A stretch of 64,000 nt of DNA from a virus. Below the pieces are notes generated by a model. The model had not been told where the DNA came from. It was given only the letters and a program-made list of their open reading frames with translations, and searched no databases. The first letter of the stretch is position 1, and each line of letters opens with the position of its first letter. Position numbers and translations under genes: made by a program. The stretch lies in the IMG/VR virus record IMGVR_UViG_3300029119_000326; one strand, given 5' to 3'. This document shows positions 4,662 to 60,240 of the stretch, in pieces.

Positions 4662-4925
4662 CATTTTATAGTACATTGGAATACAATCTTTAATTCATAA
4701 ATTACATAAATTAAATGTCAATATTAAGTTCATGCCTACTGTGTCTTATTTGTAGTGTTTATTTTCCAATATTTACCTGTTGTTTAAGCAAAAAAACGGT
4801 ATTAAAATTAAATTATAAACAAAAAACACATTGAAAAAATGTATTTTTAGTAAAAAATTACTATATACTGTCAGAACGAAAAATAAATATTTTTCACAAA
4901 CTAAAAAATATTGAGGCGATTATAT

Positions 4926-5021
4926 ATGTCAAAAAGATTACATTTGAAAGAAAGAAAACTCCCTAAGAGTATTGTAGATAAATTGGTTGATATTTTGACA
5001 GAATTAGGATACGAACAATAA
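4926..5021 (+). CDS. small ORF (31 aa), truncated paralog of the N-terminus of the next gene
   Basis: SIVDKLVDILTELGYE resembles KIVNDLVNTLNDLGYK in the 5039 gene. RBS gagg. Confidence 0.25.
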   Translation: MSKRLHLKERKLPKSIVDKLVDILTELGYEQ

Positions 5022-5038
5022 TTGAAAGGAAATAAGTA

Positions 5039-5419
5039 ATGAAGCCTGAGAAAATTCCTAAAAAAATAGTTAATGATTTAGTAAACACTTTAAATGACTT
5101 GGGATATAAAACGGAAGTATTGGAAAATACAAATGATTTATATGTTGTTTGGAAATCAAATGATGGATATTATTTTTGTGCATCTGATTACTTCCCAAAA
5201 CGCAGTGATATACCGGCAATAATTGGTAGTGGATATTTATATATGGATAGTATGCTGTTTTGTTGTCCTATTGATGTACCAATTAGCAAGGATAATGTTG
5301 CATACATCATTAATGAGTTAAAGAAAAATATAGCAAAATTATATGACGAAAAAAATATTGTAAAATTTCTTTTAAACAGTGACAAATATTTTGAAAAATG
5401 GAAGAAAAGTGAAAACTAA
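5039..5419 (+). CDS. hypothetical protein (126 aa)
   Basis: RBS gaaagga; no motif. Confidence 0.4.
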   Translation: MKPEKIPKKIVNDLVNTLNDLGYKTEVLENTNDLYVVWKSNDGYYFCASDYFPKRSDIPAIIGSGYLYMDSMLFCCPIDVPISKDNVAYIINELKKNIAKLYDEKNIVKFLLNSDKYFEKWKKSEN

Positions 5420-6180
5420 AACTTAAATATTATATTTTTCGTATTTGATATAATACTATATGTCTTACTTCCATGCTCATTTTCTTCTTGTGAAAACCAA
5501 TTACCAAAAATAACTATTTTAGTTTTTATATACTTTTTAAAATTAGTGAAATATTTATCTTCAATTTCCCAAAATAATTTTGTATCTAAAACACGCAATG
5601 TTAGTTTTAGAATTTTATTTGTATCTGTTGTTGATTGAATTTCTATCGTGAATTCATGCGTTTTTTTATTATAAATAACAATATTACCTTCAACTAATTT
5701 TAAACCTGATATACCATTATTAATAATATTATAATCAAGTGTATTTTTGTTGATGAAGAAATCCTTGATTTTTAATCCGTTAAGATATTCTGTGTTGTAG
5801 TCATTAGCACAACAATAAGCGTATAGTTGTCTTGTAGTATGTATGTTACAAGTTTTCACATCACCATCATGACTGCGATTATCAGTATTATTCTGTCTGT
5901 TATTGCCTTCTTCATTGGAATTGCCTCTCTCAAAAATATCTTCGAGTGAGTGTTTATCAATTATATTATCAGACTTTTCAGAATAGTCTGATATATATTT
6001 ACAATCACTGTTTTTATCATGCTCGTTTTTTGCTCTGAAATATGGAGGATATATTCCTTTAAATGATGCAACAATTACTTCTGTTTTACAATAAGGACAA
6101 TAATACTTATTTCCTTTATTATCAGAATTAATATCTCTGATGTTTATCAATTTACCATTTTGATCTAATGCTATTCTCAT
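5416..6180 (-). CDS. CoiA-like family protein (N-terminal zinc ribbon; competence CoiA-like nuclease superfamily)
   Basis: MRIALDQNGKLINI...YYCPYCKTEVI...YFRAKNEH resembles the CoiA N-terminus. Confidence 0.45.
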   Translation of the reverse strand: MRIALDQNGKLINIRDINSDNKGNKYYCPYCKTEVIVASFKGIYPPYFRAKNEHDKNSDCKYISDYSEKSDNIIDKHSLEDIFERGNSNEEGNNRQNNTDNRSHDGDVKTCNIHTTRQLYAYCCANDYNTEYLNGLKIKDFFINKNTLDYNIINNGISGLKLVEGNIVIYNKKTHEFTIEIQSTTDTNKILKLTLRVLDTKLFWEIEDKYFTNFKKYIKTKIVIFGNWFSQEENEHGSKTYSIISNTKNIIFKF

Positions 6181-6288
6181 TTTTACAATTCTCCAATCTT
6201 AATAATAATGTAATTATATAGCATTAACGGAGAAAATACAAATAAATCATATCAGATTAAATAGAAAAGTGAGGTTAAAAAAGCAATT

Positions 6289-6471
6289 ATGAAAACCTTT
6301 TACAAGAAAGCTTTGAAAAATCATTATGCTGTTACTTGCCCTTATTGTTGTTCGGCATATGTTTCCGAATTAAACCATCCTATTAGCAGTATCGACAATA
6401 ATATTACTGTTTACTGTTATCTTTGCCATGATTGTGGTGAAAAATGGATGGATAAAGAGTTTAAGTTATAA
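6289..6471 (+). CDS. small zinc-ribbon protein (60 aa, CxxC...CxxC)
   Basis: CPYCC...CYLCHDCG; RBS gtgagg. Convergent with the CoiA-like gene. Confidence 0.4.
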   Translation: MKTFYKKALKNHYAVTCPYCCSAYVSELNHPISSIDNNITVYCYLCHDCGEKWMDKEFKL

Positions 6472-6873
6472 GAAATTTGCAGTAAAAAAGCACCTTGATT
6501 CAACAAGGTGCTAAATTGTGTTACATTTTTTATCAACAACGAGGGAATCTTTTGTATTATTTTATTTTGTATTTTTACTAAAAATGCAAAATTCTGTTGT
6601 TTGTGGATTTTTCTATACTGATTTATACAAAAGAAATTATATGGATAAATACAACATTTTTTTATGTGTTTTTTGTTTTTGGTTACTATATATGATTAAA
6701 GAAGCTTATATAAGTTGTTTTAAAAATTCTTTACGAATAACCAATGTGTTAAGTGAACAAGTGTTATTCTACACTAATTGTTTTGATTTGTCTACAGTTA
6801 TATTTTTCCAATTTGTGAAAAATATATTAATTTTTCACAAATGATAAAATAAATTTTCGGATTTTTAAAAATA

Positions 6874-6883
6874 TTACTATATA
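6874..6883 (+). promoter_or_regulatory. TTACTATATA promoter-like motif (copy upstream of the tracr/mini-array RNA)
   Basis: Member of a motif that recurs at least 10 times, T-run + TTACTATATA. Confidence 0.4.
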
Positions 6884-6949
6884 TATCATGAAAAGGTTAA
6901 TAAGCCTTTTAGGTAGAATTAGCTACCAGAAGCTATCGCTAAACATTTA

Positions 6950-7054
6950 TGTTAGATAGTAATGAATTAACAAAGGTTAAATAGTTAGTCCGCTTGCAAC
7001 TATGCCAGAGCATGAGATAGAGCTATTTAACAATGTTTAACTTTGTGATTTGAG
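6950..7054 (+). ncRNA. tracrRNA-like module (anti-repeat + nexus-like TAGTCCG + hairpin)
   Basis: ttagatagt is complementary to repeat positions 9-17. ggttaaat is complementary to the repeat 5' GTTTTA. agtTAGTCCGcttgCAACTatg resembles the S. pyogenes tracrRNA nexus ggcTAGTCCGttatCAACTtg. Conserved at 61245-61347. Confidence 0.5.
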
Positions 7055-7153
7055 GTTTTAGAACTGAAATTACATGATACTAAAAGCGCAAAAGGATGTG
7101 GAACGAATGACCGGAATGGTTTTAGAACTGCATGAATTGCATGATACTAAAAG
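7055..7153 (+). CRISPR. mini-CRISPR array, type II-like: repeat (32 nt) - spacer (32 nt) - repeat (35 nt)
   Basis: gttttagaactgaaattacatgatactaaaag / spacer cgcaaaaggatgtggaacgaatgaccggaatg (50% GC vs ~30% locally) / gttttagaactgcatgaattgcatgatactaaaag. Confidence 0.55.
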
Positions 7154-7179
7154 CGAAAGACAAAATTAGTATCATAAAG

Positions 7180-7204
7180 TCCTAAAAGCTTTTAGGATTT
7201 TATG
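7180..7204 (+). terminator. terminator after the mini-array
   Basis: tcctaaaag/cttttagga perfect inverted repeat followed by ttttat. Confidence 0.5.
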
Positions 7205-7325
7205 ATGTTAATTTAAAACATCATTGAACCTTGAAAATTGAATATTGATAGTTTTTAAAAAAATATAGTTTCTCTGAAAAAATGAGATTTTTTAGAAGAA
7301 AAACCGAACATAAAAAAAGGCCGAA

Positions 7326-7347
7326 AAGCCTTGATTTTACTACGGTT
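7326..7347 (+). terminator. possible terminator
   Basis: aaggc-cgaaaa-gcctt followed by tgatttt. Confidence 0.3.
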
Positions 7348-7494
7348 TTAGTTGAAATTTGAGTACCTATATGGTATAATAGAAGTAGATAAAGGAAACT
7401 ATCGAATACGGTAGGCGGTTAGTCCTCTCAATTACAAAATTTGGGAGGATAATAAAATTCCTCCCTTAAATAAATATGAAGGGAGGATGATATT

Positions 7495-7560
7495 ATGGAA
7501 TATTCAGTGATAACAACATTAATACTTATTATTACTCTAATTCTCATAATAAAAAAATAA
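7495..7560 (+). CDS. candidate type I toxin-like small hydrophobic peptide (21 aa, MEYSVITTLILIITLILIIKK)
   Basis: Strong SD gggagga 7 nt upstream. An upstream gggagg/cctccc hairpin (7444-7465) could sequester the SD. 12/13-nt inverted repeats (aggcggttagtcc at 7414-7426; ggactaaccgtct at 7599-7611) flank the unit. Promoter-like ttgaaa-N17-tataat at ~7351-7380. Confidence 0.35.
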   Translation: MEYSVITTLILIITLILIIKK

Positions 7561-7713
7561 CCGCCCAGTCTGAATGAGCGATTATTTTTAAAAATAAAAC
7601 ACCTTTGGACTAACCGTCTATCCGACAAGTCCTTTATCTATAAGTATATTAACACAGGAAATAATATTTGTCAAGATTATGAATATAATCTGAATTTATA
7701 AGGAGGAAAATAA

Positions 7714-17642: not shown

Positions 17643-18851
17643 ATGAAACTGAATATGAAGATTACATCACAGTATCGCAAAAATTTATTATATGTGATTG
17701 GTCAATATCATTTCTTACCAAGTAATGTAACAATGATAGTAAGTGCATATCCATTTTTTGAAAATGAAGAAAAGCTTAATACTACATATAGGCATATGTC
17801 GGAAAAACATCTTGTTCAAAAAATAAAAACACTTAACACAACAAAATCAATTAAAAATCAAAAAGACACGATTGTTACAACAGAACTTGGAAATTTAGCA
17901 ATGGCAAATAATGATATAAAAACAAATCAATTAGTAGAAGGCAAAATAACAAGCACTAAACAAAGAACATTGTATTACGCTGCTGAATGTGAAATATTCT
18001 TTAGAGCGTTTTGTGAAAGCGCAAATGACAAATTCAAAAATTATTTGAATCGACAAATGATACAGTTTGCTTTAAAAAATTCAAAGATAATCAATAAAAA
18101 GATTTTGTTAGCAATTAAGGGTACGAGAGTTTATGGTTTATGGAAAACACCAAACAGGTACTTCCGTTTTTACAATGTTCAAGAATACAACATTCGACTT
18201 ATAACAGCACAAGAGGAAAATTTAGTTACTGCTTTGTGTACCACACAGAATATTACAGAAAATGAAATTGGAGATTCGATTTTGCTTGCCAAGAATGTTG
18301 AAACAATTAACAAGTATATTGATGTGCAAAATGAGCAGGAACTTGAAAAGAAGGTACTTGAAACAAAATACAGTCGAAATACGAATCGAATATTTGATGT
18401 ATCAGGTACTTACTACGATTTTGAACATTTGAAATATTTTGTGTACAACTCGCCAGAGCAAACATACATTTTAAATTTTCTACTTTATAGTAATGTGAGA
18501 AAATCAAATGAACATAGCAATTTGGAACATTTAATACAAAGATACATAATTGCATTGAATCCAAATAGGCACTTCATAGCGAGAAAGTATGGAAATACAG
18601 TTTATGAGAGTAACGAAGAAATTGCTTTTGAAATAGTAACACAGGAACTTAACAAATTAAAAGGTATTGTTGTGAATATAAAAGCAATGCGAAACGGATA
18701 TTTTAATGAAAAAAGAAAGATTGTAATTTACGGATGTGATTTTAACAAAAAACTGTATAACAGATTATTTTCTAAATATGAAAATATAGAATTTAGGTAC
18801 TTAAATAAAAATGAATTGCTTGAATATGTTAAAGCAAGAGCTAACGAATAG
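17643..18851 (+). CDS. hypothetical protein (about 400 aa), upstream of the coupling protein
   Basis: ORF. A ctcacgc...gcgtgag hairpin at 17580-17611 precedes it. No HUH motif seen. Confidence 0.4.
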   Translation: MKLNMKITSQYRKNLLYVIGQYHFLPSNVTMIVSAYPFFENEEKLNTTYRHMSEKHLVQKIKTLNTTKSIKNQKDTIVTTELGNLAMANNDIKTNQLVEGKITSTKQRTLYYAAECEIFFRAFCESANDKFKNYLNRQMIQFALKNSKIINKKILLAIKGTRVYGLWKTPNRYFRFYNVQEYNIRLITAQEENLVTALCTTQNITENEIGDSILLAKNVETINKYIDVQNEQELEKKVLETKYSRNTNRIFDVSGTYYDFEHLKYFVYNSPEQTYILNFLLYSNVRKSNEHSNLEHLIQRYIIALNPNRHFIARKYGNTVYESNEEIAFEIVTQELNKLKGIVVNIKAMRNGYFNEKRKIVIYGCDFNKKLYNRLFSKYENIEFRYLNKNELLEYVKARANE

Positions 18852-23142: not shown

Positions 23143-23169
23143 AAATATCTGTGTATTTTTTAAAATTGA

Positions 23170-23179
23170 TTACTATATA
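23170..23179 (+). promoter_or_regulatory. TTACTATATA promoter-like motif
   Basis: Motif copy upstream of the SpoVG-like gene. Confidence 0.4.
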
Positions 23180-23233
23180 CCATACGAGGTAGAGGAGATA
23201 CCTTGAAAAAATTAAGGGAAAGGAGAGAACGAT

Positions 23234-23614
23234 ATGAGTACATATTCATTACCTATCAAGGTAAATTCTGACAGTAATAATACGGATAATATTTTAAATG
23301 TCGAAATTGATTGTCGAATTTATCCTGTTAGAAGAGGAAGAGATGGTCTTCGCGCTACTGCTGTGTTAGATTATTTCGGTTTCACATTGGGTGATATACA
23401 AGTTTATGAAAGGCGTGGTCAAATTTCAATAGTATATCCAACAAGAGAAATTCGCCGTAAAGGTGAATTAAGAGAAGCATCAGTATATTTTCCAAACAAC
23501 AGAGAACTTGGTCAAAATATCAACCATATCATCAATCAAGAATATCTTAATGTTGTCAAACATAATGATGTTCCTACGCTTGAAGGTATGGGTATCAAGA
23601 ACGGTCAAGAATAA
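23234..23614 (+). CDS. SpoVG family protein
   Basis: IDCRIYPVRRGRDGLRATAVLDYFGFTLGDIQVYER...YPTREI...ELREASVYFPNNRELGQNINHIINQEY matches the SpoVG fold pattern. Confidence 0.6.
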   Translation: MSTYSLPIKVNSDSNNTDNILNVEIDCRIYPVRRGRDGLRATAVLDYFGFTLGDIQVYERRGQISIVYPTREIRRKGELREASVYFPNNRELGQNINHIINQEYLNVVKHNDVPTLEGMGIKNGQE

Positions 23615-37060: not shown

Positions 37061-37092
37061 CTAAATAAAAAATTTTCGGGGGGCAATGATAA

Positions 37093-37750: not shown

Positions 37751-37760
37751 TTACTATATA
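37751..37760 (+). promoter_or_regulatory. TTACTATATA promoter-like motif
   Basis: Upstream of the first YopX gene. Confidence 0.4.
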
Positions 37761-37812
37761 CCTGTGAAATGAAAAATGAAAGAATATTAAGCCATTAGAA
37801 AGGATAAATAAC

Positions 37813-38331: not shown

Positions 38332-38357
38332 GTTACTACCGTTTAAGGAGGCAATAA

Positions 38358-38534
38358 TTTGGAAAAATGGTATTACGAAATTATAGATTCATCTAATAAT
38401 GAAACAGTATTTTATGTATCTATTGATTTACCTATCAAGGAAGAAAAGGTGTGTAGTATTCTTGGTTTAGACGGTTTTTCAGCAAAAATGATTACCAAAG
38501 ACGAATATGAAAAAAATACTGACGATGAAACTTA
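38358..38534 (+). CDS. small acidic ORF (58 aa, TTG start)
   Basis: Strong RBS aaggagg; frame checked by hand. Confidence 0.35.
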
Positions 38535-38572
38535 AAAAAATGTTGATGATTTAAAAATTAAGGAGGAAAGAT

Positions 38573-41133: not shown

Positions 41134-41670
41134 TTGAGTAACAGTAAAATACATACTTTATACCGGATATATTATGATAACATTATTGTTTATGTTGGAA
41201 GAACAAATCAACCTCTACAAACTCGTATTAGAGGACATTTATTCAAAAAGCCAATGCATCGGACTTTGGATATTAACCAAATTTCAAAAATTGAATATAC
41301 CGAGTTCGAGTCCGAAGCAGATATGAACTTATACGAAATATATTATATTAATTTGCTTAAACCTGCTTTAAATTGTGATGATAAGGTCAAAGACGAGCTG
41401 ACTGTTAAATTACCGGAAGTAGAGTGGAAAGAAGCTTACTTCAAATTATGGAATAAGTGGAAAAAAGAAATATCAGAAAAAGATAACGAAATTGAAAATT
41501 GTTATCAAAGAATCAAAGATATTGAGGAAGAAAAAACAATATTAAGAGGACTTAAAAGAATAGGTCAAATTTCAGAAAATGAATTTTGGAATAAAATGGA
41601 TTTATATAATCAGGAACAAGACAAAATAAGAAATCAATGTAGGAAAAAAAGAGGAGAAACTTATTTTTGA
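41134..41670 (+). CDS. GIY-YIG nuclease domain protein (paralog of 34573)
   Basis: TLYRIYYDNIIVYVGRTNQPLQTRIRGH...; TTG start after gagaggtga. Confidence 0.6.
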   Translation: MSNSKIHTLYRIYYDNIIVYVGRTNQPLQTRIRGHLFKKPMHRTLDINQISKIEYTEFESEADMNLYEIYYINLLKPALNCDDKVKDELTVKLPEVEWKEAYFKLWNKWKKEISEKDNEIENCYQRIKDIEEEKTILRGLKRIGQISENEFWNKMDLYNQEQDKIRNQCRKKRGETYF

Positions 41671-47280: not shown

Positions 47281-47508
47281 AATTATATTCAGAAGTTGTG
47301 ATGATTTTAGTGATTATAATAAACTTTGTTGACTTATGCTAATGGTTCGCATATAATGAAGATTATAAATAATTATACAAAAATTGTTTTAAAACTGAAT
47401 ATCGGATACGACTCTCCGCACCTCTATTTTGTATGTGTCACAGTGAGAGATAATTTAACAGCTACAGAATAATTTCTGTGGCTGTTTTTTTGTAATTTTG
47501 TAATTTTT

Positions 47509-47518
47509 TTACTATATA
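47509..47518 (+). promoter_or_regulatory. TTACTATATA promoter-like motif
   Basis: Motif copy. Preceded by a hairpin-T-run (gctacagaataatttctgtggc tttttt) at 47461-47490. Confidence 0.4.
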
Positions 47519-47548
47519 AGTATGTAATAGAAAAAATATAATCTATTT

Positions 47549-47953
47549 ATGGAAAGGATGATTAAAATTAAAACTATTTTATTTAATGAAAAGAAAAATC
47601 AAAAAATTGAAATATATCAGACAGATAATCTGATCGTAATTTTTAAAAGTGCAATCACAGATAAGAAATCAAATCACCATTTTGATTTTAGCGATATTAA
47701 ACCAAAAATTACTGGTCAAAATATGTTGTGTATTTCACAAAATGGCTTCAGTATTTTATTAAATAAATTTTCAAATGAAAATAAGGCAAACGCATATGCT
47801 AAATCATATGCAAAATACCATTTAACTAATGAAGGGTATTGCGTTGCAAATTGTAAAGCGCAAGAACAAAAAAATCAAAAAATTGTACAATGCATGAAAA
47901 ATGTTGCAAAACAATATCCTGATTTCTTTTGCGATTTAAGTGAGGATGTGTAA
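47549..47953 (+). CDS. hypothetical protein
   Basis: ORF. Confidence 0.4.
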   Translation: MERMIKIKTILFNEKKNQKIEIYQTDNLIVIFKSAITDKKSNHHFDFSDIKPKITGQNMLCISQNGFSILLNKFSNENKANAYAKSYAKYHLTNEGYCVANCKAQEQKNQKIVQCMKNVAKQYPDFFCDLSEDV

Positions 47954-49274: not shown

Positions 49275-50469
49275 AAAAAATAAAATTTTATGCGTTCTTT
49301 TATCATTTATTATTGTATTATCTTCTTTACCAATAATAAGCTATGCCGGAACTCCTAATATTCCAAAAAGTTTTTCTGTTGGTTTAGGAGGAACATTGAC
49401 TATACCAGTTGATTTGTCAAATTGTTCAGGAAAGCAAAAAAAATGGAAGATCAATGGTGATGGTTCTGTTGCAACAATATCTTCAAATGGGGATGTTACA
49501 GGAAACAATTTAGGAACTGTGTCAGCCTATTGTTCAACGAGTGCCGGAGAAATCGCAATCTGCAAAGTTACAGTTGTTCCAAGTGCAAATATTTCTATTG
49601 ATAAAGCTAATGTATCACTAAAGATAAGTGATACTGTTAAGTTAAATAGCACTGTTTTTCCGGAAAACGCAGTTCAAAATGTTATTTGGAATTCGCAAAA
49701 TAATTCTGTTGCAACTGTTACTAACGATGGAATTGTTACTGCAGTAGGAAAGGGTTTTACAAAAATTACCTGTATTTCAACTGATGGAACAAATAATAAT
49801 GCAACATGTAACATTACTGTTATAGAACAAACAACTAAACCATTAAAGAAACAACGAAAAAACAAATCAACTACTAAAAAGCGGAAAACAGAAGTGAAAA
49901 CCACAACCACAAAAAAAGAAACTGTTTTGCAAACAGATAAAACAACAAAGAAAAAAATAAAATCTACTTCTGACAATTCTGTGAAAAGAAATGAAGATAA
50001 TATAACTGAAGCTAAGACAACTGCTGCTTCTACAACAAAAAAAATAACTTCAAAAATAAATTTAATTGAAAGTACAACTTCATCACAAAATGAGAGCGAA
50101 AATGAATTTGATATAAATAATGGAGATGAAAGTGTAGCAGACAGCGAATATTCTTTATTTGCAATCAGTAAAAGTAAAAAACCAATTCAAATTACTTGGA
50201 ATAAATTAGAATCGGTATCAGGTTATGAATTATATCAATCAGATAAAGCAAATTTATCAAAACTCAGCTTAATATATGACGGACCACAAAATTATTACAA
50301 TAAGCATTTATATCTAAATGGAAAAAACTATTTTTTTGTAGTTCGTGGATATAGTTTCAACGATAAAGGTGAAAAAATATATATGAATTATTCCAAAGCA
50401 ATTTACATAAAAGCAGTAAACAAATCAATAATAAGAAAAATATTTGATAAATTACAAAAAGATGTGTAA
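49267..50469 (+). CDS. secreted protein with Big_2 (bacterial Ig-like) domains and a T/K-rich linker
   Basis: Signal peptide. VKLNSTVFPENAVQNVIWNSQNNSVATVTNDGIVTAVGKGFTKITCIS Big_2 pattern. Confidence 0.55.
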   Translation: MIRKNKILCVLLSFIIVLSSLPIISYAGTPNIPKSFSVGLGGTLTIPVDLSNCSGKQKKWKINGDGSVATISSNGDVTGNNLGTVSAYCSTSAGEIAICKVTVVPSANISIDKANVSLKISDTVKLNSTVFPENAVQNVIWNSQNNSVATVTNDGIVTAVGKGFTKITCISTDGTNNNATCNITVIEQTTKPLKKQRKNKSTTKKRKTEVKTTTTKKETVLQTDKTTKKKIKSTSDNSVKRNEDNITEAKTTAASTTKKITSKINLIESTTSSQNESENEFDINNGDESVADSEYSLFAISKSKKPIQITWNKLESVSGYELYQSDKANLSKLSLIYDGPQNYYNKHLYLNGKNYFFVVRGYSFNDKGEKIYMNYSKAIYIKAVNKSIIRKIFDKLQKDV

Positions 50470-50482
50470 AAACTATTTTATT

Positions 50483-50492
50483 TTACTATATA
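50483..50492 (+). promoter_or_regulatory. TTACTATATA promoter-like motif
   Basis: Upstream of the HPF gene. A variant AACTATATAA lies at ~50568. Confidence 0.4.
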
Positions 50493-50601
50493 ACATCAGA
50501 AAAGAAAAACAGCATATTTTTTGCTTTGAAAATATTTTATAAAAAATATGTAAAAAAGCAAAATAATAACTATATAACATTGTAACAAAAGAGGAAATGA
50601 A

Positions 50602-51162
50602 ATGTTAAATAAGAATTTTGTAGTAAAGGGTTTTGAGCTTATAGATGAAGAAAAAGAAATAATTTCATCAAAAGTAGACAAGCTTGATAAAAAAATAAAA
50701 ATCAATACAGATGTAACGATTAAAATCAGAACAGCGGCGAGTGGAGACTACAAGTCAACTGTTTCGTTTACATTACTTGGAAAATTTATTAAGGGTGAAG
50801 GTAAAAATAAAAAATCACCTATACCGGCAGTAAATGAAGCCATTGATGATGCAATTCGCAAATATAGAAAGCTTAAGGATAATCGTTTTGAAAAGCAAGG
50901 AAATAAAATTTCTAAACTTCTTGAACCTAAAGCTGTTCTAAAAAATGTCAATATGAAAGAATATGACAACTTTGGCTCAATGTCTGAAAAAATAACAAAG
51001 AAAAAATATATTGAATTAAGACCTCAAACTATTGACGAAGCCATTGACGAAATGCTGTTTCTCGGAGAAAAATTTTATATGTTTAAAAACCTTGATGGTG
51101 AAACTTGTACAATTTTCAAAAGAAACAATAATCAAGGATTCGGATTGTTAGTGTCGAAGTAA
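50602..51162 (+). CDS. hpf: ribosome hibernation promoting factor, long form (HPF/YvyD-like)
   Basis: N-terminal NFVVKGFELIDEEKEII... and C-terminal LRPQTIDEAIDEMLFLGEKFYMFKNLDGETCTIFKRNNNQGFGLLVSK match long-HPF domains. Confidence 0.75.
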   Translation: MLNKNFVVKGFELIDEEKEIISSKVDKLDKKIKINTDVTIKIRTAASGDYKSTVSFTLLGKFIKGEGKNKKSPIPAVNEAIDDAIRKYRKLKDNRFEKQGNKISKLLEPKAVLKNVNMKEYDNFGSMSEKITKKKYIELRPQTIDEAIDEMLFLGEKFYMFKNLDGETCTIFKRNNNQGFGLLVSK

Positions 51163-51788: not shown

Positions 51789-52496
51789 ATGATGAAGAAA
51801 ATTCAGAAAGCACTCGCGATTTGTATGTCAGTAGCTTGTATTGCCGGTTATTCTACACCAGCTCTTGCTGCATCTACAAATGTAAACTCTGTCGGTTCTG
51901 TTGTTGCAGATGCAGCTGCAGACGATCAAAGCGAAAATAACTATGGTTCACAAGGAATTGTAGGTAAGGATGCTACACAGCAGAAAGAATCAGAATACTC
52001 TAAATATGCTAACACTGATAAAACAGTTGAAAACGGTAATGCTGCATCAACAGATGTTTATGCAACACAATCATCAACTTTCTCAGTCGTTGCACCGGTT
52101 GTACTCGTAATGGATGGTTCTGCCGAAAATGAAACTCATAAGGCTGTCGGACAAATTCAGGTTGCAGGAAACCTTGCAGGTAACGAATATGTTGAAGTGA
52201 CACCGCAAGATGCTGATACACAAAAAGACGGTATTAACTTTGCATTGAAACAAACAGGCAAGAGCGATGTAGTTGCTACAATTGTTCAGGATAAAACAAA
52301 GTTCTGTACAGCAACAAGTGGTACTGTTGCAGACATGGATAATATGACTAAAGGTCTTACAACAAGTCTTGCAGATACTACAGCAACAATTACTGTTACT
52401 GCTGATGATTCAACTAAAAGCGGCGATGCCGGTATTTCAGCAGGTTCATGGCATGGTCAATATAATACTAATATTGCACTTAATGTAGCTGAATAA
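51789..52496 (+). CDS. secreted protein, paralog family core module (shared N-terminal domain only)
   Basis: Signal peptide ...ALAASTNVNSVGSV. Block STDVYATQSSTFSVVAPVV...AGSWHGQYNTNIALNV is shared with 54589 and 56293. Confidence 0.55.
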   Translation: MMKKIQKALAICMSVACIAGYSTPALAASTNVNSVGSVVADAAADDQSENNYGSQGIVGKDATQQKESEYSKYANTDKTVENGNAASTDVYATQSSTFSVVAPVVLVMDGSAENETHKAVGQIQVAGNLAGNEYVEVTPQDADTQKDGINFALKQTGKSDVVATIVQDKTKFCTATSGTVADMDNMTKGLTTSLADTTATITVTADDSTKSGDAGISAGSWHGQYNTNIALNVAE

Positions 52497-52626
52497 CTTG
52501 GCAAAAAGTATTTTCTCAACCAAAACAAAAGTTAGTTCATCTTTCTTTTTGTACGGTTGAGAAAATTTGTATTATAAATATTATATGTGTATTTAATATT
52601 TATATTTTTTAAGGAGGAAAATATAT

Positions 52627-53679
52627 TTGAAAGAAAAAAAGCTTAAAGAAGTGTTTGTTACAGATGTAAATAAATATCCATATTTGCATGAAATTCTTGA
52701 TGATGAAGATGTTGAAAACTTAAAGATATTTAAGAAGGATAAAAAAATAATTCCATTCGATTATCTCACAAAAAAGCAATTTAAAGAAATTCTTGACGAT
52801 GAAGATTGTCAGGCTAAAGTTATCGGTAATGTAAGACTTCGTGATAAGTATCATAGAGAAGTTAAAAATAAAAACCAAAAAACTAAAACAAAAAAGAAAT
52901 CAAATGTAATAGGTTGTTTTCACACATATTTCAACGATGAATATATCGAAAAGCATCCTAATGAAGAGTTTAACGAAACTCATACATATGAATTAAATCT
53001 TTATAAGCCTAAAGATACATCTTGCATTGGCTATGCTTATATTGGTAACAATAAGTTTGTACGAATTGAAAATGAACATTATTTCTTTGTTTTCCTTCTT
53101 ATCATGATTATGATTGCCGCTGTTGTTTTAGGTGTGTATCTTATTCCGAAAATTGATATTAACAAATCAAAAGACTTTGAAAACGGTGATTATACTTCAC
53201 CAAATAGTTTCAATTTGTCATACGAAAATAACATTCAATTTGATTTTGTTAACCATTATACTATTGATAAGGAACATACTTATTTGCCAATCGGCAATCC
53301 TGAAAAAAATCAATTTTCTTATAAAGTAAAAGTATATCTTGTTAAACCAGATGATATAAGCAAAAAAAATTACCTTACTACCATAAAAGATAGCGATGGT
53401 AATGATATTCTCTGTTTTGATATGAATAAAAATGGAATAGTTGACAAAAACGAATCGGTTGTTGATGAATTAGTCTGGGAAACGAAACTAATTGAACCGG
53501 GTGGAAATCCGGCTAAAGTTGAGCTGTATGATATTCTCCCAAAAGGAACTTATTATTTGGCGTTTAAATATAGTTTAAGTCAGAAAGACGGTACTGATAT
53601 TACAACACCGGATAATCAAAAATATTCGGTTCAAAACGGTTTTACGGCTGTTACAACTACAATTGATGTAGTTAAATAA
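52627..53679 (+). CDS. hypothetical membrane protein
   Basis: TTG start after aggagg; internal TM. Confidence 0.45.
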   Translation: MKEKKLKEVFVTDVNKYPYLHEILDDEDVENLKIFKKDKKIIPFDYLTKKQFKEILDDEDCQAKVIGNVRLRDKYHREVKNKNQKTKTKKKSNVIGCFHTYFNDEYIEKHPNEEFNETHTYELNLYKPKDTSCIGYAYIGNNKFVRIENEHYFFVFLLIMIMIAAVVLGVYLIPKIDINKSKDFENGDYTSPNSFNLSYENNIQFDFVNHYTIDKEHTYLPIGNPEKNQFSYKVKVYLVKPDDISKKNYLTTIKDSDGNDILCFDMNKNGIVDKNESVVDELVWETKLIEPGGNPAKVELYDILPKGTYYLAFKYSLSQKDGTDITTPDNQKYSVQNGFTAVTTTIDVVK

Positions 53680-53684
53680 CATTA

Positions 53685-54239
53685 TTGTTTATGCTGAAAG
53701 ATAATGAAAAGGTTCTCAAACTAAAAATAAAAAAAATATCATCTTTTTTTCTTACATTTGGACTTGTTCTTTTCTTCTTATTGGCTATCAGACATTATGT
53801 CTGTACCCCAATATATATTCCCTCTGAATCAATGAGCGAAACATTACAAGTTAATGATTTGCTGTTGATGTCAAAAATTTCCTATAATGTTTCAAAACCC
53901 GAAAGAAAAGATATTGTTGTTTTTTCCTCTGATCAAGTTGATGAAAAGGAAACAATACTAATTAAAAGAATTATCGGTCTTCCGGGCGATAAAATTGAAA
54001 TAAAAAAGGGAAATGTTTATGTGAATAATAAACTTCTTAGTGAGTCTTATGCTAAAAAAGACAATTTTTCCGGCACATTTGTTGTTCCAAAAAACAAATA
54101 CTTTGTCCTTGGAGACAACAGAGAGGACTCTTTAGATTCACGATACTGGGATAATCCTTATGTAGATAAAGATGATATAATTGGCAAAGCGATTTTTAAA
54201 TACTATCCAAAATTTGAAAATATTTATAAGAAAAAATGA
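53685..54239 (+). CDS. signal peptidase I (S26, P-type)
   Basis: ESMSETL (Ser box). IKRIIGLPGDKIEIKKGNVYVNN (Lys box). GDNREDSLDSRYW. Confidence 0.8.
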   Translation: MFMLKDNEKVLKLKIKKISSFFLTFGLVLFFLLAIRHYVCTPIYIPSESMSETLQVNDLLLMSKISYNVSKPERKDIVVFSSDQVDEKETILIKRIIGLPGDKIEIKKGNVYVNNKLLSESYAKKDNFSGTFVVPKNKYFVLGDNREDSLDSRYWDNPYVDKDDIIGKAIFKYYPKFENIYKKK

Positions 54240-54339
54240 AACAACCGTAGACATATGGGGATTGCTCAAATAATAGAGAAGCTATGTTTATATAGCGGAT
54301 GTTATAAATTTATAAAAGACTGAAAGAACTGATTGTATT

Positions 54340-54528
54340 ATGAGAAAATTATTGGCAATTTTGGTCGTGTTAGCCATAGTTGGAGCATTAATAGTCGGAA
54401 TATCAGGAAAAGATATTGTTGATTATTGTATCAATTTTATGAAAAATCTATGTGTCTTTATTCTGAATTGGCTTAAACAGATAGCTGATTTTATTCAGGA
54501 CTATATAATATCTCATGTGGCTTCGTAA
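54340..54528 (+). CDS. small membrane protein (62 aa)
   Basis: Hydrophobic N-terminus. Confidence 0.3.
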   Translation: MRKLLAILVVLAIVGALIVGISGKDIVDYCINFMKNLCVFILNWLKQIADFIQDYIISHVAS

Positions 54529-54588
54529 TATAAGGACACTCATTTGAGTGTCCTTGCTTTATTATAAATTAGAATAGAGAGGTAAAAT

Positions 54589-56265
54589 ATGATAAAAAAT
54601 AAACTTATAAATAAAATTATAGCTGTTTCTTTGACGGCGCTGACATTATCAAGTTCCGCAGTACCGGCTATGGCAGCTACACAAAATGTTAATTCAATAG
54701 CTTCAGTCGCAGAAGATATTTCGAATTCACAAAAAGTAGGTCAAGATAAAAATCAAAGTAAGCAAACTAAATATAGTGAATATCAAGATGATACAAATGC
54801 ATCAACTGATGTATATATCACACAAACATCAACTTTTTCGGTAACGGCACCGGTAATTGCAATACTCAATGGTCAACCTGATGACAGCGGTAATTATACA
54901 GGCGATGTAAAATACAGTGTTAAAGGTAATATTGCATCAAACGAAATTGTTAAGGTAGTTCCGGACAATTCGTTATCCTTATCTCAACCCGGCAAAGATG
55001 ATATTGAATGTTCAATTGTTGGAAAAAATAATGAAGTTGCAAAAACAGAATTCACTTATGCTGATGGTCTTCGTGCTAAAAAAGAGTTAAGTCAAGAATA
55101 CACTTTGACTACACAAGATATTACGGCAGGTTCATGGCATGGTAATTTTAACACAAATATTTCACTTGAAAACAATCTTAAATGGTATGATATTACAGAT
55201 AAGATTGATTTAGCAAACGGTGAAAATGCTCGTTGGAATATGTTCGGTATACTGACGAAAGGCAATTCAAAAAATGAGTACAGAACGGTAAATATTCCTG
55301 TTCAACAAGGAGAAAAATATAGAGTAACTGGTGTCGTTTATGGTAGCGATAGATTGTTAACAGCAAGATCTGAACTTGGATATGGTTCTCAGTATACAAT
55401 TGATAATCAAATGATTCCGGCAAACAATATCAATGGAACAGGAACTATTAAAGAACAAGTATTGACTATACCAGAAGGCGCAAAATGGTTATGTATATCA
55501 TCATCAAAGTTTGCTTTGTCACAGTTCAAGCTTGAAAAACTTAGTGATGATTCTGTAAACATTACTTCTTATTCAAGTGAAAATTTCAAATGGGAATTTG
55601 ATAAGCCATATTTGACATTTACTGTTGATGATACAAATGACAATATTGACGAAATTGCAAAAGTTTTTGCAAAACACAATATGCCTTGTAATTACGCAAC
55701 ACAGTATTCAAGAATTAACGGCACTGCAAATAACGGCGAAACAAAAAAAGATATATTATTGAAAGCCCAAGAATCAGGTAGCGAAATTTTGGCTCATCAT
55801 TATCTTGTTCTTGATGATAAATCAACAGAAAATGATTATACCGAAATATACGAAAATATAAAAACACAACTTGAAAAAGCCGGCTTTATTGTAAATGGTA
55901 TTATTGTTTCGGGCGGTTCAACATATTCGAAGCAAGATTTTTCTAAGTCAACAAAACATGCTTACGCTGCTGGTTACTTATATTCGGATTTAACAGCGAC
56001 AAATAATGTATATAATCATAGATATTATAATAGCAGAATTTTTAATGACTCCGCAGATATTAGTTATTGGAAAACTCAAATTGATAATTTGGTGAATGAC
56101 GGTTCTGGTTGGTTAAATATTGGTTCACATGTTGATGCGCAATGGTCAAGTGGTCACACAATGAATCCTGAAATGATTGATAAAATACTTACTTATTGTG
56201 AAGAAAAAGGTGTTGAGGTAACAACTTGGAATTCGCTTTATAATAATTGTGGCGTAAACAAATAA
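54589..56265 (+). CDS. secreted paralog with shared N-terminal module + C-terminal NodB-like (polysaccharide deacetylase-like) domain
   Basis: Signal peptide AMAATQNVNS. Shared block. C-terminal FTVDDTNDNIDEIAKVFAKHNMP. Confidence 0.5.
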   Translation: MIKNKLINKIIAVSLTALTLSSSAVPAMAATQNVNSIASVAEDISNSQKVGQDKNQSKQTKYSEYQDDTNASTDVYITQTSTFSVTAPVIAILNGQPDDSGNYTGDVKYSVKGNIASNEIVKVVPDNSLSLSQPGKDDIECSIVGKNNEVAKTEFTYADGLRAKKELSQEYTLTTQDITAGSWHGNFNTNISLENNLKWYDITDKIDLANGENARWNMFGILTKGNSKNEYRTVNIPVQQGEKYRVTGVVYGSDRLLTARSELGYGSQYTIDNQMIPANNINGTGTIKEQVLTIPEGAKWLCISSSKFALSQFKLEKLSDDSVNITSYSSENFKWEFDKPYLTFTVDDTNDNIDEIAKVFAKHNMPCNYATQYSRINGTANNGETKKDILLKAQESGSEILAHHYLVLDDKSTENDYTEIYENIKTQLEKAGFIVNGIIVSGGSTYSKQDFSKSTKHAYAAGYLYSDLTATNNVYNHRYYNSRIFNDSADISYWKTQIDNLVNDGSGWLNIGSHVDAQWSSGHTMNPEMIDKILTYCEEKGVEVTTWNSLYNNCGVNK

Positions 56266-56292
56266 TTTCTACATAAGTTCAGGAGGTTTTAT

Positions 56293-58914
56293 ATGAAAAT
56301 AAAAAAAATAATTTCTATTATTTTAGCCAATATAATTATTTTCTCTTATGCAACAACAACTTATGCAGCAACAGAATACAAAAATTCATCCGGTTCTGTT
56401 GCGGAGGATATAACGAACACCGATATAGTAGGTGTAGATGAAAATCAAAATGCTCAAACAAAGTATAATGAATTTAATGTTGATAACAGTGCTATAACAA
56501 GCGTATATGTTTCGCAAGCTTCTACTTTTTCTGTTATAGCACCTGTAATTGCCACAATGAATGGAGAAGCAGACAAAAATGGAAATTATACAGGTACAAT
56601 TAAATACAGTGTTACCGGAAATATCGCCGGCAATGAAGTAGTTACAGTAGAACCGGATTCATCCTTTGAATTAAAACAACCTGAAAAAGAAAATATTTTA
56701 TGTAATATTGTATCAAAAGATGGAAACACTGCAAAAACTAAATTTACTTACGGTGAAGGATTAAAAATAGGTAATACAGTATCACAAGAATACACTTTAA
56801 CTACAAAAGATGTAACGGCAGGTTCTTGGGTTGGATATTTTTCAACAAATATTTCTATTTCTGATTCGGAAAAATTTTATTCTTCAGTTAAAAAAGCTGT
56901 TGATGATGCTAATAATTTAACAACCGAGAATGCTGACATTTCTGTAAGTAATGTGAATAACGCAGTAGCAAGTCTTTTTGTGTCGAATAACAATGCTTAT
57001 ATAACTTTATTAAATGATGCAAGTGATGTTGAAGCACTAACATTAAACAACAATACAGTTTTGGATTTACAAAATAATTCATTATCTTTTAAAACAGGCA
57101 AAAATCTTGTTTTTAATAAAGACTTTACAATTCTAAACGGAAATGTTATTTCGACTGATACAAATAAAACAATTCAAGGCTCAACAAGCAATACGAGTGG
57201 TGAATTTTATTTGAATGACATTAAACTTACACAAAATGTTACTTCATCAATCAGTTTTACTGCAATAGGCGTTGACATAAGCACTCTAAATTCAACATTT
57301 AGAAATTTTAGTATAATTCAACAAGGAAACGGCAATAACTCACACAATACATTAGGAATTGCAACACGAAATAAAAGTACGGATTCAAACACACTAATTG
57401 ATAATTTTAACTTTGACTCAACAATAACTGGCGGAGATTATCAGACTGCTGTTCAGCCATTTGGAAATACTGTAATAAGTAATTTTAACATTACTATAAA
57501 TACCGTTAATGCAGGTACAAGGGCATTTAATGCTTCACAATCAGCTGTTAATTTCACTGCTAAAAGTGGAAATATTGATTTGAAAACAAATCGTGAAATA
57601 AACGATAATAAAACATTTGCAGTAAATATATGTGCTTCTGTGGCAAGTAATATAAAAGATGTAAATATAAATTTAAAAGGAAACACATCTGAAATAAGAG
57701 GTATACAGATTCCATCTAATTCTTACAATAATAAGTTAGAAAATGTAACAATAAATCTCGAATCAAATTCAAATAATATATTTGGAATTGCAACTTTTGG
57801 TAATGATTTAACAATGATTGATTCAGATATTCAAGTAAACTCGAAAAACGCTCAAAATGGTAACGCAATTTGCGGAATTACCGGAAATAATAAATATACA
57901 AACGAATATTTAAAAGTAATCAATTCAAAAATTTCTGTTAATTCTGAAGGAAATAATCAACCTGTTGTTAGCGGAATGGAACTTTGGAAATATGATTTAG
58001 ATGTCAATGGAAGTGAAATCACAACGAATTCTGTCAACTCAAATCAGGATTACGGAATTCAAACTACTAATGAAAATATAAATATTGTAAATACTAATGT
58101 TACTTGCAATACGAAGAATGTAACCACCGGTGCTGCAGTTAAAGTTGAAAATGATTCAAATGTTACAAATAAAAAAACCTATATAACAAAATCTGATATA
58201 TACGGAACACATAATGGTGTTATTACATCGGAAAAAAATAAAACTGAAATTAAAAATTCAAATATTACTTCTGCAACTGAACCAATCACAATTAAAGAAA
58301 ATACTGATGTTTATGATTCAAAAATTAAAACTATCAATAGAGATAAGTATAGTGCCAAAGAAATAGGTCCTTCATTTTTTTCAGTAAAAATCATAAGAAG
58401 TGATAATAATGATTCGGCTCGTAATACAATAAATTTCTATAATTGTGAAATAGGAAATCCTATGGATGATGTTTCAAATTATTCATATTACACTTTTCTT
58501 ACCTATAATGATAGTTGTACATCATGTCCTTTCGATGTTAACATTTATGATTCAATAACATATAAAGGTAAAACAAATTATATTTATTTAGGTACACCTA
58601 TTTCATCTTTTGTGAAAAAGGGAATAAAAAAATCGACAACATATAATCTATATGGTTCAACAAAAATAATGAAAGATAATCAAACTGAAATATCGAAAGA
58701 ACAGATTGCATCGGATATTGAATACTTTAATGATCAAAATAACTGGACTTATCCAATAAGAGGTAATGCAAGTGATTCTACACCAGATGATGAAAAGTAT
58801 TATGCATCATTATGGACTCCTAATAGAATTATTGAAGCGCATTATTATTGTGCAGACGGTACACCAAAGTCATATGCATACGAAGATACATGTGGATTGC
58901 ATGATAAACGATGA
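56293..58914 (+). CDS. secreted paralog with shared N-terminal module + long parallel beta-helix-like (pectate-lyase fold-like) C-terminal region
   Basis: Signal peptide. Shared block. Many N-x-T/N-x-N/I-x-I repeats. Confidence 0.5.
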   Translation: MKIKKIISIILANIIIFSYATTTYAATEYKNSSGSVAEDITNTDIVGVDENQNAQTKYNEFNVDNSAITSVYVSQASTFSVIAPVIATMNGEADKNGNYTGTIKYSVTGNIAGNEVVTVEPDSSFELKQPEKENILCNIVSKDGNTAKTKFTYGEGLKIGNTVSQEYTLTTKDVTAGSWVGYFSTNISISDSEKFYSSVKKAVDDANNLTTENADISVSNVNNAVASLFVSNNNAYITLLNDASDVEALTLNNNTVLDLQNNSLSFKTGKNLVFNKDFTILNGNVISTDTNKTIQGSTSNTSGEFYLNDIKLTQNVTSSISFTAIGVDISTLNSTFRNFSIIQQGNGNNSHNTLGIATRNKSTDSNTLIDNFNFDSTITGGDYQTAVQPFGNTVISNFNITINTVNAGTRAFNASQSAVNFTAKSGNIDLKTNREINDNKTFAVNICASVASNIKDVNINLKGNTSEIRGIQIPSNSYNNKLENVTINLESNSNNIFGIATFGNDLTMIDSDIQVNSKNAQNGNAICGITGNNKYTNEYLKVINSKISVNSEGNNQPVVSGMELWKYDLDVNGSEITTNSVNSNQDYGIQTTNENINIVNTNVTCNTKNVTTGAAVKVENDSNVTNKKTYITKSDIYGTHNGVITSEKNKTEIKNSNITSATEPITIKENTDVYDSKIKTINRDKYSAKEIGPSFFSVKIIRSDNNDSARNTINFYNCEIGNPMDDVSNYSYYTFLTYNDSCTSCPFDVNIYDSITYKGKTNYIYLGTPISSFVKKGIKKSTTYNLYGSTKIMKDNQTEISKEQIASDIEYFNDQNNWTYPIRGNASDSTPDDEKYYASLWTPNRIIEAHYYCADGTPKSYAYEDTCGLHDKR

Positions 58915-58924
58915 AGATGAAACA

Positions 58925-58960
58925 AAAGAGAGAAATCGTTATTGATTTCTCTCTTTTGTT
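58925..58960 (+). terminator. rho-independent terminator
   Basis: Perfect 13-bp stem aaagagagaaatc/gatttctctcttt followed by ttttgtt. Confidence 0.6.
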
Positions 58961-58979
58961 ATGTACTTTTTTGTTTTTT

Positions 58980-58989
58980 TTACTATATA
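58980..58989 (+). promoter_or_regulatory. TTACTATATA promoter-like motif
   Basis: Upstream of the sortase gene. Confidence 0.4.
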
Positions 58990-59015
58990 AACATGAATAG
59001 CAAAGGAGGATTCTT

Positions 59016-59885
59016 ATGAGTACAAAATCAATAAAAATAGTGACAATTTTAATTTCGATAGCACTAATTACCTGTGTAGCGTTTTTGTTAATATTTAAAA
59101 TAAATGTTAATAATTCGTATAAACAAACTAATCAAGTTATGCAGAGTGTATTGGTGAAAAATTCAAAAGATGAAAATGATGTCGATTGGGAAAAATTGAA
59201 AGCGAAAAATAAAGATGTTATTGGCTGGCTGTCGATAAACGACACAACAATAAATACGCCTATTGTTCAATCAACAGATAATTCATATTACTTAAAGAAA
59301 AATTTTAACAAAAAATATTCTTTTAACGGTAATCCATTTATTGATTACCGTAATGATATGAATATAGGTGATACTAATACTATTATATACGGTCATAATA
59401 TGAGAGATAGTCAATTATTTGGAGAATTACTTGACATATATAAAAACTCACAAACGGCAAGTAATTACAAAATAATAAAATTGAAAACACCTAAAAGTGT
59501 ACACAAATATGCAATAATTGGAGCTTTTTATACTAATTCAGAACCTAAAGATGATAATGGATATGTTTTTGAATACAATTCACCTAATTTAGACGAAGGC
59601 GATTATGCTGACTTTTTAGCACAACTTGAACAGAGATACATATTTACATCCGGTGTTGATGTGAATATGTCTGATAAACTTCTAACTCTTTCTACATGTG
59701 CTTATCAATTTAAAAATGAGAGATTTGTAGTTGTCGCAAGAGAACTTCGTAATGGTGAATCAGAAAATTCAATAAAATTCAATTTTGAAGATGTAAATAA
59801 TCCGAGGTATCCCGACAAATGGTATAAAGTAAACCACAAAAATAACATTTACAAAAATTTGCCTAAATGGTCATTAAGCGAGTAA
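59016..59885 (+). CDS. srtB: class B sortase
   Basis: N-terminal TM. DVIGWLSINDTTINTPIVQSTDNSYYL...TIIYGHN...LLTLSTCAYQF...RFVVVAREL (His-Cys-Arg triad). Confidence 0.8.
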   Translation: MSTKSIKIVTILISIALITCVAFLLIFKINVNNSYKQTNQVMQSVLVKNSKDENDVDWEKLKAKNKDVIGWLSINDTTINTPIVQSTDNSYYLKKNFNKKYSFNGNPFIDYRNDMNIGDTNTIIYGHNMRDSQLFGELLDIYKNSQTASNYKIIKLKTPKSVHKYAIIGAFYTNSEPKDDNGYVFEYNSPNLDEGDYADFLAQLEQRYIFTSGVDVNMSDKLLTLSTCAYQFKNERFVVVARELRNGESENSIKFNFEDVNNPRYPDKWYKVNHKNNIYKNLPKWSLSE

Positions 59886-59922
59886 TACATATTTTGAAAA
59901 AATATAGGAGGTGAAAAATACG

Positions 59923-60120
59923 ATGTTTAAAAAATTGATTAACGAAATCAAAAAACTTGAATCTTTAAAACAAGCTAAACTTGAACAAAAAGCTAAACTT
60001 GATGCAGAAATCAAAATTATTGAAGCTAAATTAAAGCCAAAATATGCAGCAAGAACCAAATATGAAGAAGCTGAAAAAATGGCTCAAGAAGCTTTAGATT
60101 TTGATACGAAGGAAGAATAA
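59923..60120 (+). CDS. small coiled-coil protein
   Basis: ATG after ataggaggtg. Confidence 0.35.
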   Translation: MFKKLINEIKKLESLKQAKLEQKAKLDAEIKIIEAKLKPKYAARTKYEEAEKMAQEALDFDTKEE

Positions 60121-60230
60121 TTTGGAATAATCGTTTGCAATATTCTCGTGAGTTTGGTTATGAGAGTACTTACTAATTACAGACAATTCTAAAAAATAAT
60201 TATGTAAAAACGCATTTTTTTTACTATATA

Positions 60231-60240
60231 ACCATGTAGC
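60231..60240 (+). promoter_or_regulatory. TTACTATATA promoter-like motif heading the ncRNA/tRNA region
   Basis: Motif copy. About 420 nt of structured non-coding sequence follows. Confidence 0.4.

Follow-up and report, generated by a model that had tools for sequence, protein, structure and literature searches.

What does a single 10-nucleotide word, TTACTATATA, do that it recurs along a mobile element always on one strand and always outside genes? The question is raised by a window of 64,000 nucleotides (nt), the whole stretch of DNA analyzed here, from record IMGVR_UViG_3300029119_000326; the window is part of a conjugative element of at least 166 kb from human-gut bacteria, filed as a virus in IMG/VR. 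Exact TTACTATATA occurs 11 times in the window (starts at 4858, 6683, 6874, 23170, 31148, 33231, 37751, 47509, 50483, 58980, and 60221), whereas dinucleotide-preserving shuffles returned a mean of 0.36 copies and a maximum of 2. The original prediction, made from the sequence of the window, was right that all copies are on the + strand (11/11 exact copies) and gave nine of these positions, but it omitted 6683, placed the last copy at 60231, and put the chance expectation at one or two hits, against about 0.4 in the shuffles. It also read a variant at ~50568 as AACTATATAA; the letters are TAACTATATA, at 50567, and this is the 12th site of the window. One-mismatch variants of TTACTATATA are otherwise at background (five on the + strand, 10 on the − strand), and among the five on the + strand only that at 50567 is intergenic and has the full context described below, so the 10-mer is essentially invariant and not the peak of a degenerate motif.

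Placement is as restricted as sequence. Intergenic DNA accounts for 12.2% of the window and contains 12 of the 12 sites (P ~1e-11), with none inside the coding DNA and tRNAs that make up 88% of it, and only 0.09 copies of TTACTATATA per strand would be expected in the intergenic DNA. The genes of the window are nearly all on the + strand, the same strand as the sites. The motif is real and far above chance. Measured from the last base of the motif, the start codon lies 25-58 nt away at seven sites (4858, where the start codon belongs to an open reading frame (ORF) of 31 amino acids (aa), 23170, 33231, 37751, 47509, 50567, and 58980), so the predicted distance of 25-70 nt to a gene start holds at these seven. 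It fails at 31148 (143 nt to the flotillin gene), at the distal site 50483 (109 nt to the HPF gene), at 60221 (465 nt to the first tRNA), and at 6683 and 6874, behind which no credible ORF was found. Pfam agreed with the proposed flotillin, YopX, HPF, and sortase genes, and the predicted tRNAs are five in number, but the SpoVG match is only weak (E 4.7e-4).

We extended the census to ~156 of the 166 kb of contig IMGVR_UViG_3300045988_183523 and matching loci, which brought the count to 20. Eighteen of these sites are exact and the other two read TAACTATATA and TTACTATAAA; every one is on the + strand, and the − strand has none. When aligned, the sites share only aTGTA - N14 - TTACTATATA - N7 - A. 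The aTGTA begins 19 nt before the 10-mer (exact TGTA in 13 of the 20 sites), the 14-base spacer between TGTA and the 10-mer is mostly T/A, and an A stands exactly 8 nt after the 10-mer in 20/20 element sites (0.4^20 ~1e-8), or in 21/22 when a diverged relative, designated L170, is included. The arrangement aTGTAt-N17-TATATA is in fixed register, and all 20 element sites are intergenic and on the gene strand. A start at the conserved A would put TGTA at −35 to −32 and TATATA at −13 to −8, 17 bp apart. Read from the alignment, this is the geometry of the sigma-70 family, with two elements ~17 bp apart co-oriented with the genes; the conserved A is likely the transcription start, and the implied 5′ untranslated regions would be 18-51 nt long at most genes. 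We consider it very probable that the TTACTATATA sites are promoters. The original prediction had noted that the DNA upstream is rich in T and that a canonical −35 is missing. Both points hold, but a conserved aTGTA occupies the −35 position and had been overlooked along with the invariant A. The sites of the window and the terminators upstream of four of them are listed below.

4839-4875, + strand: site 1, 10-mer at 4858-4867, with aTGTA, a T-rich spacer, N7, and A; before a 31-aa ORF (4926) and a 126-aa gene (5039-5419)
6664-6700, + strand: site 2, 10-mer at 6683-6692, with TGTG at the −35 position; 191 nt upstream of site 3
6855-6891, + strand: site 3, 10-mer at 6874-6883, with TTTCGG at the −35 position, the same as in the site before a regulator gene at L169:14676
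23151-23187, + strand: site 4, 10-mer at 23170-23179; 54 nt before a weakly SpoVG-like gene (23234-23614)
31095-31127, + strand: terminator hairpin ending a 1971-aa surface-protein gene; its T tail enters site 5
31129-31165, + strand: site 5, 10-mer at 31148-31157; before the flotillin gene (31301-32716)
33212-33248, + strand: site 6, 10-mer at 33231-33240; 28 nt before a 122-aa gene (33269-33637)
37664-37705, + strand: terminator hairpin 46 nt upstream of site 7
37732-37768, + strand: site 7, 10-mer at 37751-37760; 52 nt before a YopX gene (37813-38331)
47457-47486, + strand: terminator hairpin directly upstream of site 8
47490-47526, + strand: site 8, 10-mer at 47509-47518; 30 nt before a 134-aa gene (47549-47953); orthologous site at L170:4546
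50464-50500, + strand: site 9, 10-mer at 50483-50492; distal member of a tandem pair before the HPF gene (50602-51162); orthologue at L170:7580
50548-50584, + strand: site 10, variant TAACTATATA at 50567-50576 in full context; 25 nt before HPF; its orthologue at L170:7707 is TTACTATATA
58921-58960, + strand: terminator hairpin directly upstream of site 11
58961-58997, + strand: site 11, 10-mer at 58980-58989; 26 nt before the sortase gene (59016-59885)
60202-60238, + strand: site 12, 10-mer at 60221-60230; before an ORF-free leader of ~460 nt and then the tRNA cluster (60696-61198)

Do the sites act in DNA or in RNA? Strong terminator hairpins end 19-45 nt before the sites at 31148, 37751, 47509, and 58980, which leaves no room for another promoter at these four. 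Because the hairpins adjoin the sites, the runs of T seen before them (about −42 to −36) are partly terminator tails, and at many sites they are simply such tails. This confounds the UP element that had been proposed from them, which would be an A/T-rich block at −40 to −60 distinct from neighboring features. The word could instead be an RNA element, UUACUAUAUA, serving as a processing, antitermination, or stability signal at the starts of cistrons transcribed by read-through. Strand-specificity and co-orientation with genes fit such a signal equally well, but the terminators immediately upstream, the DNA-type −35 and +1 partners at fixed distances, and the lack of any conserved secondary structure around the motif or match to an Rfam family make it very improbable.

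Does the word persist where the surrounding DNA does not? L170, whose proteins are 36-66% identical to those of the element, has four exact copies in 12 kb, each of them intergenic and on the + strand. Three of the four are orthologous to the site at 47509 and to the tandem sites at 50483 and 50567 before HPF, and another stands before a homologue of the regulator gene. The intergenic DNA around the orthologous sites has drifted, terminator stems included, so that retention of the 10-mer there is the strongest computational evidence that the word is under selection. These data also bear on whether the motif has any transcriptional role, for it might have spread as a recently copied cassette, be a word skewed with the direction of replication, or mark a site at which nicking, partition, or restriction takes place. 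A strand bias of this kind is indeed seen in skewed words such as KOPS or Chi. However, only ~10+4+1 bases are common to the sites and the flanks are otherwise unrelated, so the sites are not copies of one cassette; the word is missing from the coding DNA of the window, and it is kept at orthologous gene starts across lineages. We regard a nontranscriptional role as hardly credible.

Which genes would the promoters serve? Element-wide, the sites head operons for VirB4, a methylase, adhesins, replication-type genes, and others. A block of 38 kb of like composition (contig ~107.8-145.8 kb; L148:1400-20606, L160, L161) has zero copies of the motif. Its genes are of the antirestriction and leading-region type, encoding ArdC, an ArdA-like protein, YodL, DUF3848, several orphan methylases, a MutS_I-domain protein, and a zeta toxin, and the block probably enters the recipient first and is expressed differently. 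Sister elements share leading-region modules at 88-95% identity, and this shared DNA is motif-free.

Only three copies, none with promoter context, were found in 332 kb of related or other low-GC elements, and a scan of IMG/VR for the pattern TGTA-N14-TTACTATATA returned at least 120 background singletons. The motif is absent from relatives whose VirD4 is 44-61% identical (L016-L018, L175, and L176), except for one CTACTATATA in L176 that has a terminator and an A at +8, so that it is not a feature of the whole plasmid family. One relative in this range uses textbook TTGACA/TATAAT promoters. Another, with VirD4 60% identical, repeats a word of its own, TCTTAT(G/A)yTTTCT...AAAGTAAAG, in the intergenic DNA ahead of several genes (L017:14000-19000). 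Separate lineages may have separate private promoter words.

We compared the sites with known promoter classes. The scan for sigma-A promoters (TTGACA-17-TATAAT), which demanded at least 9/12 matches and a −10 hexamer with A as its second base and T as its sixth, did not call the motif sites, where TATATA is without T at position 6. Sigma-A promoters of 11-12/12 matches coexist in the window (4035, 4995, 7352, and 47329); the host consensus is thus ordinary and the motif a separate class. The promoter at 4035-4063 is a perfect TTGACA-17-TATAAT (12/12) and precedes a YefM/YoeB toxin-antitoxin pair (4093-4604). An extended −10 promoter, as originally suggested, requires TG at −15/−14, where the sites have an invariant A and C, TTAC filling the place of the TG extension of Firmicute sigma-A promoters. 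A single-subunit, T7-like polymerase was considered because ACTATA resembles the T7/SP6 core, yet no RNA polymerase domain was found in ~110 ORFs scanned over ~156 kb, a set that leaves out a few large ORFs. Nor do the sites fit group-5 sigma factors, for promoters of the TcdR/UviA type have −35 TTTACA and −10 GTTATA (PMC4031146), as against aTGTA and TTACTATATA here; with no such sigma detected, the TcdR/UviA-like regulator of the original prediction is not upheld. A full-text search of the literature found the 10-mer only in primers and constructs of no relevance here, and in no regulatory role.

Is the reader of these promoters encoded by the host? The host might supply an alternative sigma factor, or its sigma-A could act with an activator from host or element, so that the late and cargo operons of the element would be plugged into a host regulon. 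The sigma-70-like geometry, with aTG at −35 and TATATA at −10, accords with this; no factor has been tied to the motif by computation, and the CTACTATATA site in distant L176 hints at wider use. A host reader is harder to reconcile with a 10-mer invariant to a degree unlike housekeeping promoters, with its lack of fit to the sigma-A, TGn extended −10, or TcdR/UviA consensus, with the fact that sister elements, as well as relatives whose VirD4 is 60% or 44% identical, do without the motif and use TTGACA/TATAAT or motifs of their own, and with the presence of sigma-like genes on the element itself. We consider a host reader possible but unlikely.

The search of the element for a sigma factor, which the original prediction had put forward as a check, found none among the proteins of the window by Pfam, but it did find candidates elsewhere on the element. 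P0272 (278-282 aa; L171:11302-12150) matches Pfam Sigma70_r4_2 with 36.6-37.3 bits (gathering cut-off 25.7), and the 272-aa gene just upstream is its paralogue, the two forming a tandem pair (L171:10431-12150) that is conserved in the relative L172. A profile built from four sigma-like proteins, the two paralogues of L171 and the two of L172, hits SigA region 4 in PDB (E 3e-3), and a profile of their N-terminal part has a single, only suggestive, PDB match, to region 2 of the sigma factor WhiG (E 2.1). An HD protein and a homologue of the DnaN sliding clamp are encoded in the same operon as the pair (also L169:17604-19603), and the operon is preceded by a perfect TTGACA-17-TATAAT promoter (12/12 for sigma-A) that is conserved in L172 and is what a host-to-element sigma cascade would look like. 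Behind this promoter, in L169, is a leader hairpin with a T run (17738-17757), which could be an attenuator. When metagenomes were scanned with the sigma alignment, the matches all belonged to the same element.

How far do these candidates account for the motif? We propose that TTACTATATA would be the core, in the −10 region, of the conjugative element's own promoter class, and that its sites would restart transcription after terminators. The promoters would head operons for the type IV secretion system (T4SS), adhesins and sortase, flotillin, HPF, YopX, and other cargo, as well as the tRNA cluster and at least one noncoding RNA. They would be read, in the least certain step, by host core RNA polymerase with P0272 and its 272-aa neighbor as element-encoded sigma-like protein(s). 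With the pair itself transcribed from a perfect host sigma-A promoter, expression would proceed as a cascade of two steps, as in the early-to-late switch of phages.

Several observations weigh against this proposal. Relatives with VirD4 ~60% identical are without the motif, TATATA is without the last-position T that sigma-A needs, and to our knowledge no described sigma reads TTAC-TATATA. Pfam did not detect sigma region 2 in the candidate proteins, and the AlphaFold models of both are poor (predicted local distance difference test (pLDDT) 43 and 41, from two-sequence alignments), with pLDDT <50 over the putative region 2 of P0272. L172 (8.8 kb) carries the sigma pair and is without the motif, and L170 (12 kb) carries the motif and is without a sigma gene in the part read; both are short contigs and do not overlap.

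A dedicated promoter class co-regulating cargo, adhesion, and RNA modules, as originally predicted, nevertheless agrees with the co-orientation and intergenic placement of the sites, their sigma-70-type geometry, the adjacent terminators, and the conservation in L170. We lean slightly toward an element-encoded factor as the reader, and the explanation as a whole, a dedicated promoter class with a probably element-encoded sigma-like reader, seems to us somewhat better than an even bet. That the sigma-like pair in particular is the reader is a tentative assignment, which we would put a little below even chances.

Might a regulator rather than a sigma factor impose the invariance? A second candidate, P0121 (425 aa; L169:14734-16011, at ~150.1 kb of contig IMGVR_UViG_3300045988_183523), is the product of the regulator gene noted above, and a copy of the motif stands ~40-57 nt upstream of its gene in two lineages (L169 and, before a 53%-identical homologue, L170). 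Members of its family (~400 aa) fuse a helicase-associated (HA) domain, a SigA-type region 4 with the recognition helix TRERVRQI, and the C-terminal domain of the RpoA alpha subunit (alpha-CTD). The family profile matches alpha-CTD and SigA region 4 in PDB (E 1e-22 and 1e-21, respectively), and the member P0188 scores 37.7, 56.1, and 65.8 bits for the three domains in Pfam. No close relatives of P0121 were found in annotated plasmids and phages; distant members of the family (L174, L177, and L178) are on contigs of 2-3 kb, where gene context is uninformative. Literature searches on conjugative sigma factors and on a region-4/alpha-CTD fusion returned nothing relevant, and no description of the fusion family was found in the literature searched on that fusion.

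Without region 2, the fusion protein cannot be a complete sigma factor, but it might act as an activator, co-factor, or competitor. It, or a repressor, could bind the 10-mer as an operator overlapping weak sigma-A promoters, the invariance then reflecting regulator binding. Both the SigA recognition helix and alpha-CTD retained by the fusion protein are DNA-binding modules, and the motif upstream of its gene in two lineages would suit an operator. But the 10-mer has neither palindromic nor repeat structure, its position relative to the conserved A is precisely that of a −10 element, and a SigA-type region 4 would be expected to favor TTGACA-like −35 DNA rather than a site at −17 to −8, all of which leave an operator improbable. 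In the sigma-like reading that we prefer, the fusion protein, with the motif before its own gene, would serve as a co-factor or feedback component. A link between the motif and either the sigma-like pair or the fusion protein is inferred.

A more far-reaching possibility is a private program unlike any described for conjugative elements, with −10-dominated promoters read by the tandem, highly divergent sigma-like pair, whose genes lie with that of a sliding clamp, and aided by a new class of factor, the SigA-type region-4/alpha-CTD/HA fusion. The fusion protein would in that case imitate the two promoter-upstream DNA-binding modules of RNA polymerase and so redirect or supplement the host enzyme, a logic like that by which phage T4 appropriates sigma and activates late transcription through its clamp. 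We give such a program a small chance.

What kind of element carries the motif? The window encodes a VirD4-type coupling protein (18954-21443, Pfam), and Pfam further identified a SpaA-type adhesin, a sortase, an S26 signal peptidase, flotillin, HPF, two YopX proteins, an RNA ligase, a topoisomerase, a TIR protein, and the YefM/YoeB pair. The element and its sisters in IMG/VR are 166-192 kb long (contigs 3300045988_183523, 3300029136_000219, and 3300045988_183299). The element has a GC content of 30% and shows VirB4, VirD4, sortase, and adhesins, with no capsid or terminase gene seen. The same DNA is present in many human-gut metagenome assemblies, in contigs of up to 964 kb. No match was found by megablast between 22 kb of the window and annotated plasmids and phages; the closest annotated coupling proteins are ~33% identical and are on 140-270-kb plasmids of Subdoligranulum, Vescimonas, and Clostridium botulinum/sporogenes.

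Several regions of the window deserve mention in their own right. The ~820 nt behind site 3 (6874) are without an ORF and presumably are a noncoding RNA. More broadly, ~1 kb at 6700-7713 is without a credible ORF and probably represents one or two noncoding RNAs; a 24-nt direct repeat lies there (7068 and 7135), as does a 26-nt perfect-register palindrome (7163-7214). The leader started by the motif at 60221 is followed by five tRNA genes (Gln, Gly, Asn, Met, and Lys, at 60696-61198), and Rfam had no match besides the tRNAs in the ORF-free regions behind 6683/6874 and 60221. Between HPF and sortase, at 51789-58914, three secreted proteins (235, 558, and 873 aa) with similar N-terminal regions flank the S26 signal peptidase (53685-54239). 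The locus resembles SipW/TasA-type fiber loci and, on this analogy, may produce a surface fiber for mating. In the cargo region are runs of paralogues (34119-35346 with 41134-41670; 35397-36551; 36572-37584; 37813-39055), among them the two YopX genes and three genes whose N-terminal 'YxVYxIYY...VGKT' regions are alike; the runs suggest repeated local duplication.

Why would such a promoter class matter? What is known of the control of conjugation in Gram-positive bacteria comes mostly from repressors and quorum signals in a few model plasmids. A sequence-defined regulon of 20 sites would tie the T4SS, adhesins, sortase, a ribosome hibernation factor, tRNAs, and noncoding RNA to one switch, in an element frequently met in human-gut metagenomes. 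Should the sigma-like pair or the fusion protein be the reader, a new promoter specificity would follow, and possibly a new reuse of RNA polymerase modules. The motif would also, if this is true, serve to recognize such elements in metagenomic data.

A private promoter class on a mobile element is a known kind of system; the candidate factors here are unusual. In the Bacillus phage SPO1, middle and late promoters (AGGAGA/TTTnTTT and CGTTAGA/GATATT) are read by the phage-encoded sigma factors gp28 and gp33/gp34, respectively. The element resembles SPO1 in having many copies of a private, near-invariant promoter word co-oriented with the genes of a mobile element, and potentially in a cascade in which a sigma, here the candidate sigma-like pair, is made first from a host sigma-A promoter. 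It differs in the letters of its promoters, in being conjugative and not a phage, and in candidate sigma-like proteins that are too divergent for any described group. T4 late promoters, TATAAATA, are read by gp55 with gp33 and the gp45 sliding clamp. As in T4, a single invariant A/T-rich word in the −10 region dominates with little −35 information, and the candidate pair shares an operon with a sliding-clamp (DnaN) homologue, although involvement of the clamp at the motif promoters is pure speculation. Unlike T4, the sites have a conserved aTGTA at −35, and homology of the candidates to gp55/gp33 is not demonstrated.

TcdR, BotR, TetR, and UviA are accessory group-5 sigma factors of mobile or accessory loci in low-GC clostridia that serve a small set of A/T-rich promoters of toxin and bacteriocin genes, but their −35/−10 consensus is missing here and Pfam identified no TcdR-like protein. 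Extended −10 (TGn/TRTG) promoters of Firmicute sigma-A are similar in that conserved bases just upstream of a TATAAT-like hexamer offset a weak −35, and differ in having TG where the sites have TTAC and a final T where TATATA has none. The AcaCD boxes of IncC plasmids and the SetCD boxes of SXT/R391 are activator sites upstream of sigma-70 promoters in Proteobacteria. They share with the present element a motif that recurs element-wide before transfer operons and would co-regulate conjugation genes through an element-encoded factor, but in this Firmicute element it is the −10 region itself that the motif fills.

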